Shown piece after piece: positions 11,401 to 54,515 of a stretch of 64,000 nt of DNA. A model generated the notes under the pieces. It did no database searches, had not been told where the DNA came from, and saw only the letters and a program-made list of their open reading frames with translations. The position numbers and the translations under genes were made by a program. The stretch spans positions 9,982,001 through 10,046,000 of the forward strand of contig JBHGNT010000002.1 in assembly GCA_043228905.1 (NCBI GenBank). Reading direction: 5' to 3'. Position 1 is the stretch's first letter; every line of letters starts with the position of its first letter. The stretch is from Azolla caroliniana (Eukaryota > Plantae > Polypodiophyta).

Positions 11401-12434
11401 AACAAGCTCCACGCCAATGGTACAAGAAGTTCAAGTCCTTCATGATGGAACACCAATTCCAGAAAACATAGGCCGATCAATGTGTGTTTGTCAAAAGGTA
11501 CGAAGAAGGAGACTTCTTGATGCTCTTGTAATATGCTGATGACATGTTGATAGTTGAACAAGACACAAAAAGGATCGGAAGCTTGAAGAAAGCCCTAAGC
11601 AGGTCGTTTGCCATGAAAGACCTTGGACCGGCTGAACTGATCTTAGGAATGTACATAGTTCGAGACAGAACTCAAAAGGTGCTATGGTTGTCACAACCAA
11701 AGTATGTGACGAAGATCCTAGAAAGATTCAACATGTCGGACGCAAAGCCGTCGGCTCGGTGTTGCTGACAAATTGCAGGTTGAATGCAAAGCAGTGCCCG
11801 AAAGGGGAGAAGGAAAAGGTTGAGATGAGGATGGTACCATATGCCTCGGCCGTCAGCAGTTTAATGTATGCTATGGTCTGCATGAGACCAGACATAGCAT
11901 TTGTTGTGGGAGCATTAAGCCGATATATGAGTAATCCAGGAAGAGAACATTGGGCAGTGGTGAAGTGGATACTCAAGTACCTAAAAGGCACCTCAAGGGT
12001 GTGTCTAGGGTATGGTGTCAAAAAACTTGTGCTGGGAGGTTTTACTGACTCAGATATATCGGGAGGTGTAGACTCAAGTCGATCCACATCAGGGTACGTG
12101 ATGACCTATGGAGGGGGAGCAGTGTCGTGGCAATCACGACTGCAGAAGTTTGTAGCCTTGTTGACTACATGCAGAGTATATGGCAGCGGTAGAGGCCAAC
12201 AAAGAGCTGATCTGCATGAGAAATTTTCTCCACGAGCTAGGGATGAAGCAGAGGGAGTTCTTGCTTTACTGTGACAGCCAGAGTGCCATACATCTTGCCA
12301 AGAATGCTGCATATCACTCCCGGACCAAGCACATACAGAGAAGGTATCACTGGTTGCACGAGAAGGTCAAAGAAGGAGAGTTCACACTTGTGAAGATCCA
12401 CGCGGATAACAATGGATCCGACATGCTCACGAAG
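8422..12434 (+). pseudogene. Copia B gag-pol, many premature stops
   Basis: NYADWKIKMEDLL, WHKRLGHMSEKG, FIDDYSR, RTDNGGEY, YKARIVV, HSRTKHI..SDMLTK. The tail resumes at 18065. Confidence 0.92.
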
Positions 12435-13206
12435 TGATGGAAAATGAATCGACACTTTCCAAACTTCACCTCTCGGCCACAACCAAGGAAACACACGAAT
12501 CGTTGTTGCAGAAAAATGGGAAATGCGAAAAATAGAATGGACACACGATTTAACGTGGAAAACCCTGTACGGGAAAAACCACGGGAGTACAAGACTCCGA
12601 ACCAAAACTATGCACAGAGAAATATACAATGGCGAGCTGCAAGGCGACGACCTTGAGGTCGCTGTCCTCGCCACAGGCGGCGGAAATACACAGAGGCGTC
12701 GACCTCTTCCTCTCTCACACTCTATCTCTCTCGCGGCTACTCTCTCTTCACTCCTCTTGAGTGGAAAAAACAGAGAAATGATAAGCAACAACATTTAAAC
12801 TGTTTGCCCTAAGTCATATTTATACACATATGACTTTCAGGCTATTTACAAATATAGCCTCAAGGGCTCTTGGCAAACATATTCACAAATATGTCCCCGC
12901 ATCCGGATCTCTCTCCGGGTACATTCGTCATCCGGCTCCGTAATCGGGGTCTTCAGCATCCGGTTCCGTAACCGGGGTCTTCATCATCCGGCTCCGTAAC
13001 CGGGGTCTTCATCATCCGGCTCCGTAGCCGGGGTATTCATCATCCGGCTCCGTAACCGGGGTCTTCATCATCCGGCTCCGTAACCGGGGTCTTCATCATC
13101 CGGCTCCGTAGCCGGGGTCTTCATCATCCGGCTCCGTAGCCGGGGTATTCATCATCCGATTCCCGGATATCCGACAATCCCATCCGGAGGGACCGTAATC
13201 CCAACA
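12435..13206 (-). repeat. Copia C 3' LTR
   Basis: Direct repeat of 17288-18059, adjacent to the PPT. Confidence 0.97.
12928..13158. repeat. 28-bp tandem repeat x8 in U3 (second copy 17781-18011)
   Basis: Unit TCATCCGGCTCCGTA(A/G)CCGGGGT(C/A)TTCA. Confidence 0.95.
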
Positions 13207-13216
13207 AACTCCCCCT

Positions 13217-16200
13217 TCACTTCGGCATGGGATGTCTCTCCAATCCGATCCTTTTCCGGCATGCTTCTAGCTTGTCGGGTGTGAGTACCTTGGTCAGCAT
13301 ATCCGACCCGTTCTCGTCCGTGTGGATCTTCGTCAGCATGAACTCCTTGTCTTCTATCCTTTCCCGGATCCAGTGGTATCTACGCTGGATGTGCTTCGTC
13401 CGGGAGTGATAGGCCGCATTCTTCGCAAGGTGGATGGCACTCTGACTGTCGTAGTAGAGTCGGTACTCCTCCTGCCGGATACTGAGCTCTCTAATGAAGT
13501 CCTTCATCCATATTATTTCCTTGCCGGCTTCAACAGCCGCCATGTACTCCGCCTCCGTGGTTGACAACGCAACCGTCTTCTGCAGCCTCGACTGCCACGA
13601 AACAGCTCCCCCTGCATACGTCATCACATACCCTGATGTGGACCGGCTGGTATCTGCATCAGCCGACATATCCGAATCGGTAAAGCCGTCGAGTTCGGGC
13701 TTTCCGGAGCCGAATCGGAGGCACACGTTTGCCGTGCCCTTCAGGTATCGAAGTATCCACTTGACCGCGTTCCAGTGCTCTTTGCCGGGATTGCTCATGT
13801 ACCGGCTCACCACTCCGACTGCGTATCCTATGTCCGGTCTTGTACACACCATTGCGTACATCAAGCTTCCGACGGCTGAGGCATACAGCACTTTCATCAT
13901 ATCCTCCTTTTCAGCCTTTGTCTTGGGACTTTGCTTGTTGGACAGCTTGCAGTTTGCCGGGAGGGTCGATCCGACCGGTCTTGCTTCCGACATGTTGAAC
14001 CGTTTAAGCACCTTTGTCACGTACTTCTCCTGTGACAGCCACAACTGCTTCTTGCTCCGGTCCCGGATGATGTGCATCCCTAGTATTTGTCTCGCCGGAC
14101 CCAAGTCCTTCATTGAGAAGGTTCGGTGAAGAGCCTTCTTCAGCATCCGTATCTTGACCTGGTCCCGTCTGACGATCAACATGTCGTCCACGTACAGGAG
14201 GAGTATTAGAAAGTCTCCTCCTTCGAACTTCTTCACAAACACGCAGTGGTCGGACTGCGTTTTGAGGTACCCTTCGTCGGTCATGAAGGAGTCGAACTTC
14301 CGGTACCATTGCCGGGGGGCCTGCTTCAGTCCGTAAAGGCTCTTCTTCAACCGGCATACCAGGTGCTCCTTCCCTTTCTTCTCGAATCCTTCCGGTTGCT
14401 GCATGTAGATCTCTTCTTCGAGGTCACCGTGAAGGAATGCCGTCTTCACGTCCATCTGTTCTACCTCGAGGTCCATGCTTGCCGCTATGCTCAGCACCGT
14501 CCGGATGGAGGTCATCTTCACTACCGGGGCAAATATCTCGTCGAAGTCGACGCCCTTCTTCTGCTGAAACCCCTTCACCACGATCCTGGCTTTGTATCTC
14601 GGGGGGTTTCCGGCATCTCCCGGTTTCAGCTTGAACACCCACTTGTTTCGTAGTGCCCGCTTTCCTTTCGGCAACTCCACAAGTTCATATGTGTGGTTCT
14701 CATGCAGGGAATCCATCTCGTCCTGCATGGCACTCAACCACCTGCGGCTCTGGGTGTCATGCTTTGCTTCTTCAAAGCTCTCCGGCTCCCCCTCGTCGGT
14801 TAGCAGCACGTGCTCTGGTTCCGGAAATCTCCGTTCCGGAGCTTCGGTAACCGGTTCTTCCGATTCTTCTTCATCCGAATCCATTTCGGGTTCGGGGCCG
14901 GTTCCGGTATCATTTTCATCTTCTTCGGCCGGTTCTGTTTCTTCACCGTCTTCGGCCGGATCCTCGAGTGCTAACCGGTCCCTTGCCGGTCGGGACTGCT
15001 CCTCGTAGAGTTGATCCTCACCGGTCGACTTGGAGCTCTTCATCTTCTTCTCCGACTCCCAGTCGGCGAGTGTCTTGTCCTCCATGAAGACGATATCTCG
15101 ACTCCTGAATATCTTCTTGTCGACCGGGTCCCATACTCGGTAGCCGAACTCGTCGTCGCCGTATCCGAGGAATATGCATGGCCGGGTCTTTGGATCTAAC
15201 TTTCCTCTCCGGTCCTTTGCCACATGCACGTATGCGAGACACCTGAACACCTTCAGATGCCGGTAGGACACTTCCTTACCGGTCCACACTTTCTGCGGCG
15301 TGTCTCCGTCCAAAGGTACTGAGGGTGATCTATTTATCACATACGTCGCCGTCGACATTGCCTCAGCCCAAAATCCCTTGGGTAATTTCGCATGTGCTAG
15401 CATACTCCGGACCCTCTCCATTATGGTCCGGTTCATCCTCTCGGCCAGCCCGTTCAGTTCCGGCGTCTTCGGCACAGTAAACTCGAGCCGGATTCCCTTC
15501 AAGCGACAGTACTCCGCGAACTGCCCCCGGTATTCCCCTCCGTTATCCGCTCGTATCGCTTTCAGCTTCTTGCCGGATTCTCTTTCCACTCTCGCGTGGA
15601 GTTCTTTGAAGACGGACAATACTTGGTCCTTTGTCTTCAACGGTGCCGTCCACAGCTTCCGGCTGTGGTCATCAATGAATGTCACGAAGTACTGGGCTCC
15701 GCCATGTGACTTCGTTTCTACTTGACACACGTCAGTGTGCACCAACTCCAATGGTGCACTACGTCTCGTCGGTGGCCTTGAGTGGAAGGAGGTCCGGTTT
15801 TGCTTACCGGCCAGACAGTCGGTGCACTTCTCCAGGTGCACATGCTTCACTGGAATAAGGTTGTCTTCTGCAAGCCTCTTCATCCCCTTCTCACTCATGT
15901 GGCACAGTCTCTTGTGCCACAGCTCACCGGCAGCGTCGGCTGCCACATTCAACTCCTCCGGACACAACCAGGCATTCATAAGGTACAGTGTGTTGACTTT
16001 TCGGGCTCGAGCCACTATCAGGCTCCCCTTGCTGAACTTCATTACGCCGTTCCGGATGCTACCCGTATAGCCTTCATCGTCTAGCCTCCCGGCCGAAATC
16101 AGGTTCAATCGAACCTCCGGAACGTGTCGGACATCCTTCAGCAGCATCTTGCATCCGGTTGATGTCATCAGCCACACGTCTCCTATGCCGGCAATCCGGC

Positions 16201-17257
16201 ATGTACCTTCATTTCCCATCCGGACACAGCCGTGCTCACCGACTGTGTAGGATGAGAAGTATTTCTTCTCCGGGGTCAGGTGGAACGACGCTCCGGAATC
16301 GACCACCCAGGTCATCTCTTCACCGGCAAGGTTCAGCTCCCTCTCTTCGGTAATGAGCATTATCTCTTCTTCACTTGCCGCGAGTGCCGTCGTTCCTTTC
16401 CGGTCCTGCCCTCGCCGATCCGGACCTCTCCGGTCCGTGGCTCCCCGGTATGCACCGTTTCTCTCCGGTGACTTCTTCGAATCGGTGTCGTCGGCTCCGT
16501 TGTCCTTTCGGTAATGCCGACAATTCTTCCGGAAGTGCCCCGGCTTCCCACAGTGGAAGCATGTGGGCCTTCCTCTTGACTGCGACCGGGTCCCCGACTT
16601 CTCCCGTCTTTGCGGACTCCGGTTCCATTGTCTTCCCCGATCCGATTCGGTAAGCAGCAACTTCGGATCGGAAACCGGTTCTTTATCTCTCCGACGCGCT
16701 TCTTCGTTCAAAATACTTGTCTTTACCGTTTGTAGGGACAAGTTATCTTCCGTGCAGGAGGTGCTAAGAGTCACCACCAAGTTCTCCCAGCTTTCCGGCA
16801 ATGTACACATCAGGATGATGGCTTGCATTGCATCCTCCAACGGGAACTTGATCGCCGCAAGCTGGTTCACGAATCCCATGAACGTGCTTACGTGTTCCAC
16901 CATACTCTCGCCATCCCGGTACTTGAGGTTCACTATCTTCCTCATCAGGGAGGTCCGGTTCAACGCATTCTTCCTCTCGTAGAGGCCCGACAGCTTCCGC
17001 CACATCTCATATGCGTTGGTGTCGTTCGCCACATGTTGTAGAATGCTCACGTCGACGTATTGCCGAATGGTTGCAACGGCTTTCCGGTTCAGAAGCCTCC
17101 ATTCCGACTCAAGTACCCCCTTCGGTATTTCCGACCTGTCAATCGGTTCGTACAGGTCCCGAACAATCAGAAGATCCTCCATCTTGATCTTCCAGTCAGC
17201 GTAATTCTGCGCATTCAGCACCATCATCCCCGGCTGCCCGCTGCCGCCGCCTTCCAT
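13217..17257 (-). CDS. Copia C Gag-Pol polyprotein (about 1346 aa; Gag, PR, INT, RT, RNase H)
   Basis: Uninterrupted ORF from MEGGGSG with CFHCGKPGHFRKNC, WVVDSGASFH, HHCC/DDE integrase, LYVDDML and RNase H STTEAEY. The frame is also open 130 codons further upstream. Confidence 0.93.
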   Translation of the reverse strand: MEGGGSGQPGMMVLNAQNYADWKIKMEDLLIVRDLYEPIDRSEIPKGVLESEWRLLNRKAVATIRQYVDVSILQHVANDTNAYEMWRKLSGLYERKNALNRTSLMRKIVNLKYRDGESMVEHVSTFMGFVNQLAAIKFPLEDAMQAIILMCTLPESWENLVVTLSTSCTEDNLSLQTVKTSILNEEARRRDKEPVSDPKLLLTESDRGRQWNRSPQRREKSGTRSQSRGRPTCFHCGKPGHFRKNCRHYRKDNGADDTDSKKSPERNGAYRGATDRRGPDRRGQDRKGTTALAASEEEIMLITEERELNLAGEEMTWVVDSGASFHLTPEKKYFSSYTVGEHGCVRMGNEGTCRIAGIGDVWLMTSTGCKMLLKDVRHVPEVRLNLISAGRLDDEGYTGSIRNGVMKFSKGSLIVARARKVNTLYLMNAWLCPEELNVAADAAGELWHKRLCHMSEKGMKRLAEDNLIPVKHVHLEKCTDCLAGKQNRTSFHSRPPTRRSAPLELVHTDVCQVETKSHGGAQYFVTFIDDHSRKLWTAPLKTKDQVLSVFKELHARVERESGKKLKAIRADNGGEYRGQFAEYCRLKGIRLEFTVPKTPELNGLAERMNRTIMERVRSMLAHAKLPKGFWAEAMSTATYVINRSPSVPLDGDTPQKVWTGKEVSYRHLKVFRCLAYVHVAKDRRGKLDPKTRPCIFLGYGDDEFGYRVWDPVDKKIFRSRDIVFMEDKTLADWESEKKMKSSKSTGEDQLYEEQSRPARDRLALEDPAEDGEETEPAEEDENDTGTGPEPEMDSDEEESEEPVTEAPERRFPEPEHVLLTDEGEPESFEEAKHDTQSRRWLSAMQDEMDSLHENHTYELVELPKGKRALRNKWVFKLKPGDAGNPPRYKARIVVKGFQQKKGVDFDEIFAPVVKMTSIRTVLSIAASMDLEVEQMDVKTAFLHGDLEEEIYMQQPEGFEKKGKEHLVCRLKKSLYGLKQAPRQWYRKFDSFMTDEGYLKTQSDHCVFVKKFEGGDFLILLLYVDDMLIVRRDQVKIRMLKKALHRTFSMKDLGPARQILGMHIIRDRSKKQLWLSQEKYVTKVLKRFNMSEARPVGSTLPANCKLSNKQSPKTKAEKEDMMKVLYASAVGSLMYAMVCTRPDIGYAVGVVSRYMSNPGKEHWNAVKWILRYLKGTANVCLRFGSGKPELDGFTDSDMSADADTSRSTSGYVMTYAGGAVSWQSRLQKTVALSTTEAEYMAAVEAGKEIIWMKDFIRELSIRQEEYRLYYDSQSAIHLAKNAAYHSRTKHIQRRYHWIRERIEDKEFMLTKIHTDENGSDMLTKVLTPDKLEACRKRIGLERHPMPK

Positions 17258-17287
17258 TTTCTGCAGCAGCCCGCTCTGATACCAAAT

Positions 17288-18059
17288 TGATGGAAAATGA
17301 ATCGACACTTTCCAAACTTCACCTCTCGGCCACAACCAAGGAAACACACGAATCGTTGTTGCAGAAAAATGGGAAATGCGAAAAATAGAATGGACACACG
17401 ATTTAACGTGGAAAACCCTGTACGGGAAAAACCACGGGAGTACAAGACTCCGAACCAAAACTATGCACAGAGAAATATACAATGGCGAGCTGCAAGGCGA
17501 CGACCTTGAGGTCGCTGTCCTCGCCACAGGCGGCGGAAATACACAGAGGCGTCGACCTCTTCCTCTCTCACACTCTATCTCTCTCGCGGCTACTCTCTCT
17601 TCACTCCTCTTGAGTGGAAAAAACAGAGAAATGATAAGCAACAACATTTAAACTGTTTGCCCTAAGTCATATTTATACACATATGACTTTCAGGCTATTT
17701 ACAAATATAGCCTCAAGGGCTCTTGGCAAACATATTCACAAATATGTCCCCGCATCCGGATCTCTCTCCGGGTACATTCGTCATCCGGCTCCGTAATCGG
17801 GGTCTTCAGCATCCGGTTCCGTAACCGGGGTCTTCATCATCCGGCTCCGTAACCGGGGTCTTCATCATCCGGCTCCGTAGCCGGGGTATTCATCATCCGG
17901 CTCCGTAACCGGGGTCTTCATCATCCGGCTCCGTAACCGGGGTCTTCATCATCCGGCTCCGTAGCCGGGGTCTTCATCATCCGGCTCCGTAGCCGGGGTA
18001 TTCATCATCCGATTCCCGGATATCCGACCATCCCATCCGGAGGGACCGTAATCCCAACA
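17288..18059 (-). repeat. Copia C 5' LTR
   Basis: Adjacent to the PBS; TATAAATA on the minus strand at about 17670-17677. Confidence 0.97.
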
Positions 18060-22820: not shown

Positions 22821-22876
22821 CCGCCCCCTCCGGCCCCGTAGACGGAAGTAGGCGGGGTTTCAGTTGAGCACCGAAA

Positions 22877-23303
22877 TCATGGTATGCCTTACCGGCTCTA
22901 ACTTCTGATCCCGGCCTGATGCAGGAGGATGAGGCTAGTGAGCTTGAACCGGTCCAGTTAGAAGACAAAGGGTTCGAGACTTTAGATATGAGTCCGGAAT
23001 CATTTCGGTTGAGCGGGCCGAACGAGCGGTTGAATCGGGATGACCAGTCGGATGAGGAACCGATGAGTAGTGGAGACTCTGCCGTGCTCTCCCTACGCAA
23101 GGAACCTAGGAGACGGTTCACGCACAAAGAGAAGGGGAAGAAGAAGATGACAGAATACGAAACCGGCAACGTTGAGTCGGATTGGAGCGAACCCAATTTT
23201 GGTAAGGAAAAAGGAGGATCTTCGGGAACGAAGTCCGAATCAGCCAAGAAGGGCCTCAAACCGGGTAATGATAAATTACGCGGGTCTTCCCGTAGAAGAA
23301 CCC
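22877..23303 (+). pseudogene. Fragment of Copia INT-RT linker (D family)
   Basis: SFRLSGPNE..SSGDSAVLSLRKEPRRRFTHKEKGKKKM matches 35630-35694 and 47244-47460. Confidence 0.8.
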
Positions 23304-24841
23304 CGTGCTCCATCCTCCACCGTAAGCGCCTCCTTTAGTCTCCGGACCGACTCCACGTGCTCCATCCTCCACTCAAAGCTACGCCCCTTTTTCAATAGTC
23401 CGTAGAGGGGTTCCGCGACATGTGCGTAGTGTGGGATCTAGATGTGGTAGAACGCGCATGCACCCAAGAATCTGTGGACCTCCGTAACCGACCCGCAATC
23501 GTTCCTCATCGCGGAGATGGCCTCTACCTTTGTCGGAGACGGTTTCCTACCATAAGGCCCGCACAGGTGTCCGACCACCAAGATCTCCGACTGCCCGAAC
23601 GCCGATTTTTCTCCAGAGAAGGTGAGTCGTGCGCTCTCGAGCTTCTGCAGCACCTTCTCGCAGTCGTTGATGTGGTTCATGACGAACCTCCGGCATCCGT
23701 CTAGCCTGACAGTCTCGTTCGCATCTTCCATCGGACACCCCTTTATCAGGATGTCGTCCAAGAATGGCATGGTGATGTCCAGGATGCAGTCCCTCAGCAC
23801 CTTGTTAATTGCGTTCACCATATGCGCCACCGAATTCGTCCCACCTTGTGGTAGGGTACACATCCATACTAGGCCGAGAGGAGTTCGCATCGTCGTGATA
23901 TCCCTACTCTCCACAGCTAGCTGGAACTGGTCATACCCTGAGTATAAGTCACCGACCGAATAGATCGACCTTCCAGCGAAGGCCTCCGCGAACTCGTCTA
24001 TGGTCGGTCTGATTCCTGCATTACGGATGGTCACCCTGTTGACTGGTTGCAGGTCCTGAATGAAGCGCAGCGTGCCGTTCTTCTTCGGCACCATAAACCA
24101 CCGATTCGAGTACGGGGCACTTGACGGTTCGAGGATGCCCATCTCCACCTTTTGCTTCAGAAGCTCCATCAACTTCGGGATGTGAGCTTTCGGCACCGGA
24201 ATCGGTTTGAGATTCCATGGTACATGCGGTACTGTGAAGATCACCATCGGTTCGACGATCGTTGGGTCCACGCACCCGATCTCCTATGGCGAGAACGCAA
24301 AGCCTTTCCCATGCCCTCCAAGCATTCTCCGAAACCTATCCTCCTCCGTCGGCAGTAGAAAGCCACCCCCACCGACCTTGAGCTCCCGTAGCGTTATGTC
24401 GGTGAACCGGTGCCCTATGCCAGCCGGATTCCGTAAACATAGGTCAAACGCAACCCCTCTTATCCGCTCCTCGTTGCCCTCCGACAAGGGTGCCGCGACT
24501 GGCCTCACCTTCCGGTCCAGAGTCTTGTACTTTGTATCCACGCGGGCCGTCCAATCCGACCCGATCCTTTCCCCGAAGTCCGCGATGACTTCGTACATTC
24601 CCATCAAACAAACCGGAATGGTCCAGTCTTCTCTAAGGTCTTCACCGATCACCTTTCGCAACTCGCCCAAGGTGTTGTCAAAAGAGACCACCTCCATGGC
24701 GCCGTTGATTTCTTCGTCGGGGGAGAGGACTCCGCATCCCCTGAGCCGCTCCTCTGCTTGCTTCCTCTCCCGGCCGTTGACGCTAGTTATAGTACAACCT
24801 CCGTTTTCGGAGAACCAAAACTTCCTACCTACTGTACATGT

Positions 24842-24907
24842 GTGGGGTTCTTCCGGTACGTCTGGACTACTGCGGCCCCACGCCTTGATAGCCCTCTCTA
24901 AAAATCC
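24842..24907 (-). promoter_or_regulatory. Putative -1 programmed ribosomal frameshift signal (PR to RT)
   Basis: G GAT TTT directly before the TAG of the PR ORF, a 6-nt spacer, then a predicted two-stem pseudoknot. The -1 frame is open into the RT frame. Confidence 0.7.
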
Positions 24908-26827
24908 CCTCGGCTGCCGCCGCCGAGGGTCTCGCGATTCCTCTCATGGTTCGGACGTACGGTCATGAATTGCACGGAATGCCGACCGTCTTGGCTCTTG
25001 ACGCGCGCGTACGCCGAACCGTTGTCTAGCACCTTCGTCAAAATGTGTGCTGCCATAATGTACGGTTCGCCGAGAATCACCGGGTGCGAGGATGTTTCCT
25101 GCACGAAGAAATGTTGATCTATCTCGACGTCACCAATCTTTACGCGTACATTCTGGCACACATCATGCAGCTCCTCCGTAGCACGCGTCGCCGCGCGTAT
25201 CTTCCACCCATGCTTGGTGTTGATCGGCCATTTACCCTTCTTGTAGAAATCCATGGACATCAGGTTGATTTCAGATCCATGGTCTACCAAGGCCACCATC
25301 GGTTCAAGAATGTCACCAATCCGCACAGGGGTTTCCGTAGTTGCCCTGGCCCAATGCAGCTTCGCGTAGTGGCTTTCCGCCAACTCGTCTTCTAGGGCCG
25401 TGTCTTCTAAGTGCGCAGTCCGCACCTCCACCGGCTTCTCCGGTTCTGGCTCCGTCGAGAGCCTCTTCCGCTTCACCAAGTCTACGATGGAGTCGTGCAA
25501 CTCCCTCTTGGCGATTCCCAGCACCTCCCGCAACGACAGCTCCACTTTACTGTCGAGGATCCGCTCTTCAAGGACTTTCCGTAGGTCCGTTGCTCTCTCG
25601 ATTTCGGTGCTCAACTGAAACCCCGCCTACTTCCCTCTACGGGGAACCGACCCCTCCGGCCTTTCCTGCCCGTTTGTCTTTCACCAAAACCTGGTAGTTC
25701 TGGCAAGCGGCTTCTACAAAGCCCGTTTTCTCTTCGACCGGATCATCCCATCCGGTGACCTCCTCAACCCGTTGTTCCGCGTGGTCCGCCTCTTCCTTCT
25801 TCAATCGAACTCCGGAGAGGCCTTCTAGCACTAGCGACCAGAATCCGGAGTCCTTCGCCTTTCGGGTCTCATCACCCCCGACCCGAATTCCCGCCGACAC
25901 TGAGTAGCAAACAGCTTCTACATGCCGTGTCGTGGCCTCTTCCATCAACCTCTTCATTCCGTCGCGCCCTGTATTCAATTCTGAGGCTCTCCGGGTCTCA
26001 CTCGCGTGCACCCGTCCATTCCAGAGGTACACCACATTGGTCCTAAGTGCGTCGGCGAAATCCGCGCAATCCTTCCGAATGTGACCAATCGCGTCACACC
26101 ACATGCACTGCTGCCAAGCCGGCGGCCTCCGGTCGCGAGGTTGTTCGCCGCTATCTCTCCGGGCCTGTGCGATCTGCAGGTCGCGCACCATTTGTGTCAG
26201 CTCCTCCAGAGCCACTCCTCCGGATGGGCCTTTGACCACGTCATTCGATGCCGAATCCGACTCCAGCCAAATTCGGGTCTCTTCCTTCCTTCCGGCTGGC
26301 ACCGATACCTGCTCCTGGAGCCTCCTCGCCGGGACCGGTCTTGACTCCGACGAGCTTTCGTCTCTCCACTCGCGCCATTTGTCGAAACGGCTGCAGACCC
26401 GTTTTACCACGGCCCAGTCTTCCGTGAGCCCTTCGTCCGTCTCCAATAGGGGACCCACCTTTTCCCTGTCGAGCGCGTCCACCGACTTGACAAACAGTAG
26501 TACTCGACTCGTTTCGAGCACGGTCCGGTCCAGCGTCGACAGCCGCACGAATCGTTTTTCGAACTCCTGGAGGAGCGCCGACGTGTTCCTCCCTTTTCCG
26601 GGGCTTTCCACCCACGCCATGAAGTCTCGCCTCGACAGCCAAAGCGAGTCATCAAACCCGTACTTCTCGAGGAGCTACAGCTCGAACTCCTCCCAAGTCT
26701 GGCATCCGGCCAGCACCTCGAGCACCTCCGCGTGGATGCTCAGCGTCACCACCCGAGGGAATCCGAACAACCGCCTGTCCACTGGGATATCCCTCATGAT
26801 CATTTCGGCCCGGTAAGCCTCCAAATA

Positions 26828-27167
26828 ACTTGTGGGATTCTTCCCACCAAATCGGCCTATGCTACCGATGATCGATTCAATGGCTCTGTCGAGGGTACTC
26901 GTCCCCTCGCGAGCGCTCACCAGCCGGTCGACGGCTACCGCCATTGCCTCTGCTAGCTCCAATCCCCTCATCTTCTGACTCCTTTGCCGCATGTTCACTT
27001 GTGGGATTCTTCCCACCAAATCGGCCTATGCTACCGACGATCGATTCAATGGCTCTGTCGAGGGTACTCGTCCCCTCGCGAGCGCTCACCAGCCGGTTGA
27101 CGGCTACTGCCATTGCCTCTGCTAGCTCCAATCCCCTCATCTTCCGACTCCTTTGCCGCATGTTCAC
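26828..27167. repeat. 169-bp tandem duplication of the gag start
   Basis: ACTTGTGGGATTC...GCCGCATGTTC occurs twice with a period of 169. Confidence 0.92.
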
Positions 27168-27180
27168 GTCAGGTTCACCA
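27163..27180 (-). promoter_or_regulatory. Primer-binding site complementary to tRNA-Trp
   Basis: Plus strand TTCACGTCAGGTTCACCA versus the plant tRNA-Trp 3' end TTCACGTCGGGTTCACCA (recalled from memory; 17/18). It lies 4 nt from the LTR, and the gag ATG follows at 27161. Confidence 0.8.
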
Positions 27181-28052
27181 ATTATGTCGCGAAGTTTCGC
27201 GTTCACGTGTAGGAAGAGGCGGGACCACAGGGGTCTTGGACCAAGGAGAGAGTGAGAGAGAGAGAGAGAGGGAGAGAGTTGCAGATACACAGAAAGAAAA
27301 AAAAAGAGCAAGAAACAGGAATCCGGTCACTATAATCAGTAGCTTACAACTCGAATAGTTACAACTGGCAATCCGGTAATGGACCTGACACGGGGTCCTA
27401 CTCACGGACACGTACGATAGCCACACGACTCAAAGAAACAAAAAGGGGGAAGGGGAGAGAGAGAGAGAGCCTCTGCTGGAAGCACACGGGTTGTCCACGA
27501 AGCAGAGACAACGAACGACGATCGGAGGAGAGAGAGAGAGCTCGGCCCTCGGTTCTGCAGCAGCACTTCGTCCTCGCCAACGCGCGATACCCTTTCTTCC
27601 TTCTCTCCTTCCTTAAAAAGTTCACCGAGGGGAGACCCTTCTCCCCTAGTCAAATCGCTTTATTCCCTGTCCCTTTTGATAGAGACACTCCCAAATCCCC
27701 TAATAAAGGTGTACTACCTAGTATTTACATCAGCCGACCTAATTATGAATTATGTACAAAATATCAATTATCGCGTCCACCCATGTAAGAGCCGGTTCAT
27801 GCGCCTTTTTCTCCGATTCCGCCTATGGCCGGTTTTCTTCACAACAACGTAGTGAGAGTAGAGAACAAAAGAACAAAAAACTGATGAGAGTGAATTGAGC
27901 TCTGCATGTAATGAAATAGAAGAAGCTTTTTGGTTTGCTACATAGAGGTAAGTCTCCTTCCCCCTTTCTTTCTATCTTGAGCACACTAATGATCTAGCAC
28001 ATCACGATCCGTTGTGCACAAAGAAGAGCCGGAGCGCCTTCATAACACTTTT

Positions 28053-53792: not shown

Positions 53793-53986
53793 GCGTTTTA
53801 TCCACATCGGACGATGGAGATCGCATGTGCCATCACCTGAGCGACATGCACCGTCCGCGCCGCGCCCAGGATTCCCTCACTTGGCCCTCTTTAATATTTG
53901 TATGTAGTTAGACACGAGCATACATACATACATACATACATGATTAAGAGGCAAAGAATTACGAGAAGTGAAGACGAGAGAGAGAG

Positions 53987-54458
53987 ATGGCTGTGAGGGT
54001 TTCTCCCTTTCCTTCTACTTCTTCTTCTTCTGCTGCTGTGCTTGCCATCTTCAAGCTTCTCCCTCCCCATACCCATAGCCATAGCCATAGCCCTAGCCAA
54101 GGAAGCTTCCATTCTTCACGCTGCTGCATCCTCACAGCCATTCCTTCTTCTCCGTTGTTCTCTCATTCTCTTTCTTCTCCTTTAATTTCTCGCATATCAA
54201 CCACATCATCCTCATCCTCATCCTCATCCTCGTCACCGTCATCATCTCCTTCCTCTCGATTCTTCCCCTCTCAGGGAACTCTTTCAACGTCTTCTTCTGA
54301 TGTTGTGACGACACCATTTGCGTCAGATTCTTTCTTTGCCAGTGAAGATATTACATGGAAATCCCTTGGCTTGCCCGAAGGTGTCATCGATGCACTTGAA
54401 CGTGCTTCATTCCTGCGTCCTTCTGCTGTTCAGGTTTCTTTGTTTCTTTTCTGGTCTC

Positions 54459-54515
<57 letters not shown>

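Follow-up and report, generated by a model that had tools for sequence, protein, structure and literature searches.

The window, i.e. the whole stretch of 64,000 nucleotides of the Azolla caroliniana genome analysed here (contig JBHGNT010000002.1, positions 9,982,001 to 10,046,000), contains on its minus strand a copy of a Ty3/gypsy retrotransposon that retains the 5' LTR, the primer-binding site (PBS), gag, the protease (PR) and the reverse transcriptase (RT). The following features were located in this copy:

27850-27847, minus strand: ACGT (NCGN) ahead of the 5' LTR, from the sequence
27185..27846, minus strand: 5' LTR (TG...CA), ends set by the match to the LTR start of a young copy and by the sequence
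27164..27180, minus strand: PBS complementary to the 3' end of host tRNA-Trp(CCA) with one mismatch, from tRNA gene matches
25637..27161, minus strand: decayed gag region, from the sequence and the alignment of sister copies
26828-27165, minus strand: tandem duplication of 169 nt in gag, from the sequence
26675-26677, minus strand: stop codon in gag, from the sequence
24898..25626, minus strand: end of ORF1, with a DUF4100 tail and a protease of predicted retropepsin fold, up to the shift site (Pfam, predicted fold)
25284-25276, minus strand: putative protease motif D-H-G, from the sequence
24284..24943, minus strand: Pol frame (-1), N-terminal linker region, with a copy-specific stop at 24286-24284, from ORF reading
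24907-24901, minus strand: putative slippery heptamer G_GAU_UUU (GGATTTT), from the sequence and its conservation across families
24900-24898, minus strand: ORF1 stop codon TAG (UAG), from the sequence
24900-24895, minus strand: 6-nt spacer, whose first 3 nt are the ORF1 stop UAG, from the sequence and the genome pattern
24894-24888, minus strand: 5' arm of predicted pseudoknot stem 1, GGGCTAT, from covariation
24870-24864, minus strand: 3' arm of predicted stem 1, GTAGTCC, from covariation
24881-24876, minus strand: 5' arm of predicted stem 2, GTGGGG, inside the loop of stem 1, from a helix-partner test
24847-24842, minus strand: 3' arm of predicted stem 2, CCCCAC, from the same test
23319..24283, minus strand: reverse transcriptase, with a stop at 23440-23438 (Pfam, alignment of sister copies)

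The window copy itself is decayed. Its similarity to the family stops at 23319, as in a 3'-truncated copy, and no 3' LTR was found within the window. The first-pass annotation had warned of a break between the gag and PR frames near 25650 and of a stop at 24284; the stop was confirmed, and the break corresponds to a 62-nt deletion at 25633/25634 relative to all three aligned sister copies, in which gag and PR share one frame. The stretch 25600-25644, around this deletion point, recurs in inverted orientation (45 nt, 98%) at 22834-22878. Elsewhere in the window, a young Ty1/copia element occupies 12432-17988, with LTR stretches that are 100% identical and contain a 28-nt tandem repeat, and with one frame of 1476 aa at 13217-17647 on the minus strand. 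An open frame at 53972-54463 is probably the first exon of a host gene; its terminal stretch resembles the start of a DEAD-box helicase.

Sister copies contain LTRs, a primer site and the domain order GAG-PR-RT-RH-INT, as expected for Ty3/gypsy elements. NCGN was found at the 3' flank of all 19 copies with an LTR pair, and the same 4 bp were present at both flanks in 16 of them (one showed a mismatch and two were unreadable). The host pattern matches to the primer site numbered 63, and the four loci checked among them all contained tRNA-Trp(CCA) genes. Dense clusters of the tRNA-Trp 3'-end pattern in the host genome (C8, 17.80-17.82 Mb, spacing ~1.2 kb; C16, 4.99-5.11 Mb) suggest tandem tRNA-Trp arrays. 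In the Pol protein of the copy L065 (1164 aa), Pfam identified RT, integrase and one RNase H region, and found neither a chromodomain (sought to E 0.5) nor aRH. Physcomitrium proteins were among the top matches of ORF1, and an IMG/VR search with the Pol protein returned no relative. A possible link to Ylt1 was considered, but the 240 protein matches listed included no named fungal protein.

Because these hallmarks match those given for Phygy in REXdb (NCGN target site duplication, tRNA-Trp PBS, no chromodomain or aRH, short internal region), the element can be classified, on sequence criteria, as Phygy-type. It shares with Phygy the 4-bp NCGN duplication, the tRNA-Trp site, the order GAG-PROT-RT-RH-INT, the lack of chromodomain and aRH and the Physcomitrium homologues, but differs in length, Phygy being 7.7-10.0 kb and the elements here ~7.1-7.3 kb (PMC6317226). 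REXdb bases its description of the clade on Physcomitrella alone and enters the ORF organisation of Phygy as 'ND', and a frameshift signal goes unmentioned in the consulted text and table of that paper (PMC6317226).

The domain preceding the shift site scores below the Pfam cut-off for aspartyl proteases. A structural model built from an alignment of 33 sequences (pLDDT 84.7) gave Ddi1 and retroviral proteases as its best matches (E ~1e-5), and the best PDB sequence match was the PR part of Ty3 Gag-Pol (E 0.003). According to this model, the domain has a retropepsin fold. In 111 of the 112 ORF1 homologues with the motif (P0123-P0242), the putative catalytic motif is D-H-G instead of the usual D-T/S-G.

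On the minus strand of the window, the PR frame terminates GGG GAT TTT TAG. The two predicted stems that follow pair at 7 of 7 positions (stem 1, three G-U) and 6 of 6 positions (stem 2), and are arranged as in an H-type pseudoknot. Following TGA at 24946-24944, the -1 frame opens 12 codons ahead of the heptamer, runs for 219 codons to TAG at 24286-24284 and is the frame of RT (RVT_1, E 4e-14, Pfam). The first-pass annotation had described this junction as a slippery site plus pseudoknot between PR and RT, with a -1 frame opening near 24946 and running into RT; site, frames and coordinates were all reproduced base for base, as was the passage into RT. An Rfam search of 24600-25100 gave a single match, ylbH, with an E-value of 3.9 that is attributable to chance.

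Relatives of the element number in the thousands in this genome (initial screens gave 3,016 and 7,290 candidates). GGATTTT was present in 28 of the 30 closest copies fetched, TAG in all 30 and at least six of the seven stem-1 pairs in 29. Twenty further copies, selected because they carry a long plus-strand PR frame, were then read individually. Ten of them, with LTRs 99.4-100% identical, carry an unbroken Pol ORF of 1164-1172 aa in -1 that spans RT-RH-IN, and their Gag-PR frame closes at G_GAU_UUU-stop. Pol is broken in nine, and in the remaining one (L080) a local change directly behind the predicted pseudoknot is followed by Pol in +1; PR and RT were found in a single ORF in none of the 20. 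A metagenome set of 80 loci, of which 52 were assessable and 28 were not, gave Pol in -1 in 50/52, in +1/-2 in 2/52 and in frame with PR in 0/52, a count that includes three corrected automatic readings and three loci added by eye. Loci L109, L112 and L134 were read as -1 by eye, their automatic frames being artefacts of permuted contigs or of a premature stop. RT identity across the families goes down to ~65%.

A PR and an RT in one frame, named in the first-pass annotation as a finding that would speak against frameshifting, was seen in no intact or divergent copy examined at the DNA level. One metagenome protein, P0105, carries PR and Pol in a single frame and shows G-F-F close to the position expected for the shift site; it reflects either the change of one base in a single copy or a lineage in which the frameshift was lost. 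ORF1 homologues span moss, liverwort and fern proteins. All 89 unnamed ORF1 homologues with the PR motif end at most 160 aa past it, 61 of them in DF, while 13 named gene models run longer. Ends in DF, or in DF plus five residues, occur among the proteins of Physcomitrium, Riccia and Adiantum. In L098, L112, L122 and some moss and fern proteins, the ORF1 stop lies five codons past the heptamer, within the predicted pseudoknot (ends such as DF-x-x-x-P-L). Riccia gene models (P0023-P0122) fuse PR to RT at inconsistent points, and these joints are probably predicted introns that skip the frame change.

Heptamer statistics were compiled from 34 non-redundant junctions (<90% alike), in which the Pol frame starts as little as one codon ahead of the heptamer. 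The heptamers were GGATTTT in 26, GGATTTC in three, GGTTTTT in two, and GAATTTT, AAATTTT and GGGTTTT in one each. The first base is G in 33/34 junctions, under 14 different codons; the Asp codon is GAT in 29 and GAC in none (background 742:563), and the Phe codon is TTT in 31 and TTC in three (background 306:315). The residues upstream vary freely and the run of five T is almost invariant. The conservation of the heptamer in the family alignment, proposed as a check in the first-pass annotation, is thus found at the nucleotide level. At other codon positions of ORF1, in-phase GGATTTY occurred only 6 times in 20,930, and the pattern GGATTTY-N6-stem-1 had 3,228 matches genome-wide, against none for the reversed control and 11 for the N5 version. 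The ORF1 stop codon is variable (TAG in 17, TAA in 11 and TGA in six of the 34 junctions), the first Met of the Pol frame is scattered from +3 to +229 codons in the -1 families, and neither a conserved start codon nor a conserved splice acceptor was found in these families. The scattered Met and the variable stop codon are therefore evidence against internal initiation and against a splice acceptor.

Covariation in both stems had also been proposed as a check, and both stems were found to covary across divergent families. Stem 1 was tested in a nearly gap-free alignment of 35 sequences that was not fitted to the structure: 82% of the cells are paired, 45 cells are changed on both sides and the covariation score is 0.43, which was reached in 0/500 shuffles (these ignore relatedness), and slid partners paired in 24-43%. 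As the position of stem 2 shifts by a few columns, it was scored as the best helix in each sequence. The score was 16.1 with the sequence's own partner and 13.5 with other partners, a result equalled in 0/10,000 permutations (relatedness ignored), and the signal also holds in the 13 sequences without GGGG; the own partner was the best or tied in only 5/35 sequences. The count of pairs with a change on both sides, taken alone, is not significant (133/500). An extra pair at columns 16-48 cuts the effective spacer to 5 nt in 12/35 sequences. The folding energy of the 66-nt stretch of the window was no better than that of shuffles (z -0.13), nor was that of the L065 stretch (z -0.48), and three other families gave z-values of -2.7 to -3.3. 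In the window stretch, stem 2 faces competition from a small alternative hairpin in the loop. Support for the predicted pseudoknot is comparative, not thermodynamic.

We propose, with a probability of about 0.88, that the conserved Gag-PR / RT-RH-IN junction acts as a programmed -1 ribosomal frameshift signal. It combines an in-phase heptamer, Pol in -1 and a predicted structure 6 nt downstream, within the usual 5-9 nt, and G_GA is a recognised variant of the X_XXY_YYZ heptamer (PMC5009743). The pseudoknot would stall the ribosome with tRNA-Asp and tRNA-Phe on GAU UUU, and a minority of ribosomes would slip in tandem to GGA UUU and produce Gag-PR-Pol. The remaining ribosomes would terminate, yielding Gag-PR in excess, and RT and integrase would be freed by the protease. 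Family members are transcribed, as three poly(A) runs span the junction (depth ~5-14, reads mostly 90-99% alike), and in these runs, at that depth, no splice joint or indel is listed at the junction.

Four other explanations of the frame change were considered. Pol might be translated independently, through reinitiation or internal initiation close to the stop of ORF1, with the structure helping termination or reinitiation. This idea draws on a clade with Pol in +1/-2 (described below), whose Pol frame has an AUG 2-6 codons ahead of the site, and is mainly a rival for that clade. In the -1 families, for which we consider this explanation very unlikely, the first AUG has no conserved position; in the two +1/-2 subfamilies it also differs in position, whereas the site and both stems are kept. 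Splicing of Pol to Gag-PR, with the U-rich run and AG as acceptor, has a precedent in the intron of Ogre, which sits at the same GAG-PROT / RT boundary (PMC6317226). TTTTTAG looks like a splice acceptor and the Riccia gene models fuse PR with RT, but the acceptor AG is missing in the 17 of 34 families with a TAA or TGA stop, the overlapping ORFs leave no room for an intron-sized gap, the low-depth poly(A) runs list no joint near the junction, and the distance from PR to the RT motif in the Riccia models is inconsistent (290-406 aa), all of which makes splicing highly improbable. Slippage of the polymerase on the U5 run, adding a base in some transcripts, would suit the nearly invariant five-T run, but it is hardly credible given the GGATTTC heptamer of three families, which has only three T, the reads without a listed indel at the run (low depth), and the fixed 6-nt spacer and covarying downstream stems, which suit a stimulator at the ribosome entry channel. 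Finally, the view that mutation has simply broken one ORF of a dead copy, suggested by the other breaks in the window copy, is refuted by the same junction in copies whose LTRs are identical and whose ORFs have no other break, by the 3,228 genome matches sharing its pattern and by its retention in families only 65% identical in RT.

A sister clade (L207-L212, L161-L190, L111 and L149) has its Pol in +1/-2. In L111 and L149, whose RTs are 88% identical, ORF1 ends CAG GTT TTT GAC/TAC TAG. The sister family is also present in the genome of the window, with +1/-2 in 26 of the 30 loci fetched, the other four being without the PR motif. In six full-length copies, all in +1/-2, the two LTRs are 99.8-100% identical and the Pol ORF measures 1164-1181 aa. 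Between the subfamilies of the clade, dN/dS is ~0.09 in both ORFs, and AG_GUU_UUU and both stems are retained despite differences at 59-66% of synonymous sites. The pattern GGTTTTT-N5-stem 1 had 99 matches genome-wide (~95 of them sister family by eye), against 10 for N6 and 2 for the control. In a midpoint-rooted tree, in which the L112 branch is very long (probably a wrongly cut segment) and from which P0021 was excluded as it lacks the anchor motif, the clade is monophyletic (100/99) and nested among the -1 families, and is therefore probably derived.

In the sister clade, the distance from U5 to stem 1 is unchanged, and the ORF1 frame arrives one base closer (5-nt spacer). A -1 slip would hit a stop at once in 35 of the 36 own loci read. 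At spacers 1-2 nt shorter, -2 is favoured over -1, a rule demonstrated on engineered U6A constructs (PMC3458567), and we favour, with some reserve, a -2 slip driven by the same predicted pseudoknot. The contrast in spacer between -1 and -2 is blurred, because the extra stem-1 pair is available to the 12 of 35 sequences mentioned above. The -2 slip is less certain than the -1 slip, since reinitiation could take place at an upstream AUG: the Pol frame has an AUG 5 codons ahead of the site in 35/36 own sister-clade loci and 2 codons ahead of it in L149 (range 2-6). Reinitiation is the less likely source of Pol, and a +1 slip, possible on UUU_U in L149, and splicing are each less likely still. RNA from the sister family amounted to 14, 9 and 6 reads, with none at the junction.

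The octamer AG_GUU_UUU of the sister clade is identical to the -2/-1 site of PRRSV nsp2TF (PMC7618472), and its -1 slip would meet a stop at once, as for nsp2N. The PRRSV site has no downstream RNA structure and needs nsp1beta, whereas in the sister clade a pseudoknot is predicted 5 nt downstream (PMC7618472). Taken together, we lean slightly towards a broader reading, in which Phygy-type elements of seed-free land plants would rely on a -1 frameshift of ancient origin, driven by the pseudoknot after the protease, with one recently mobile clade having switched the same pseudoknot to -2, its ORF1 arriving one base closer at AG_GUU_UUU.

RSV uses the heptamer A_AAU_UUA; the element described here differs from RSV/ASLV in its heptamer, in being of Metaviridae type and without env, and in its unrelated lineage. 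RSV/ASLV likewise encode the protease together with Gag and depend for Pol on a -1 shift that involves a pseudoknot (PMC12789967, PMC5009743), and the shift after Gag-Pro named in the first-pass annotation agrees with PMC12789967. G_GAU_UUU with a stop codon close behind is shared with the umbravirus PEMV RNA2 and dianthoviruses, and its use as an umbravirus shift site, also named in the first-pass annotation, is documented in PMC5009743. These viruses use a bulged stem-loop and pairing kilobases away, in contrast to the compact, local H-type pseudoknot predicted here. The element belongs to neither the RSV/ASLV nor the umbravirus group. In Ogre and Retand (Tat clade), GAG-PROT is similarly separate from RT-RH-INT, but what separates them is a gap with an intron in Ogre and a stop codon in Retand, with aRH present and without overlapping frames (PMC6317226); for the Ogre-type intron, the elements here show overlapping ORFs, an unconserved acceptor and, at low depth, no joint.

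In the available parts of PMC6317226, overlapping frames are listed solely between GAG and PROT (Tcn1, Selgy, SIRE). Plant retroelements are described as mostly single-ORF, with Gag and Pol balanced via splicing (PMC5580714), and in the consulted text of a 2016 review only two plant types have separate frames, both +1 (PMC5009743). No published account of the present signal was found in the literature covered, mostly outside subscription journals, including the accessible parts of PMC5580714, PMC12786077 and PMC7466625. Judged from sequence comparison, the junction appears to be a genuine recoding signal shared across the lineage, and the sister clade is a candidate -2 derivative of it that was not expected. 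If so, classical pseudoknot frameshifting would join the biology of plant transposons, in thousands of copies and in moss, liverwort and fern, the missing entry for the ORF organisation of Phygy would be filled, and the chimeric gene models that fuse PR to RT would be explained. The shorter-spacer rule for the change from -1 to -2 could be tested on the sister clade as it occurs in nature; if the -2 slip of this clade is real, the clade would supply a naturally occurring -2 signal that works in a transposon without a helper protein and, with the -1 families, a ready pair for testing the mRNA-tension model of shift direction.
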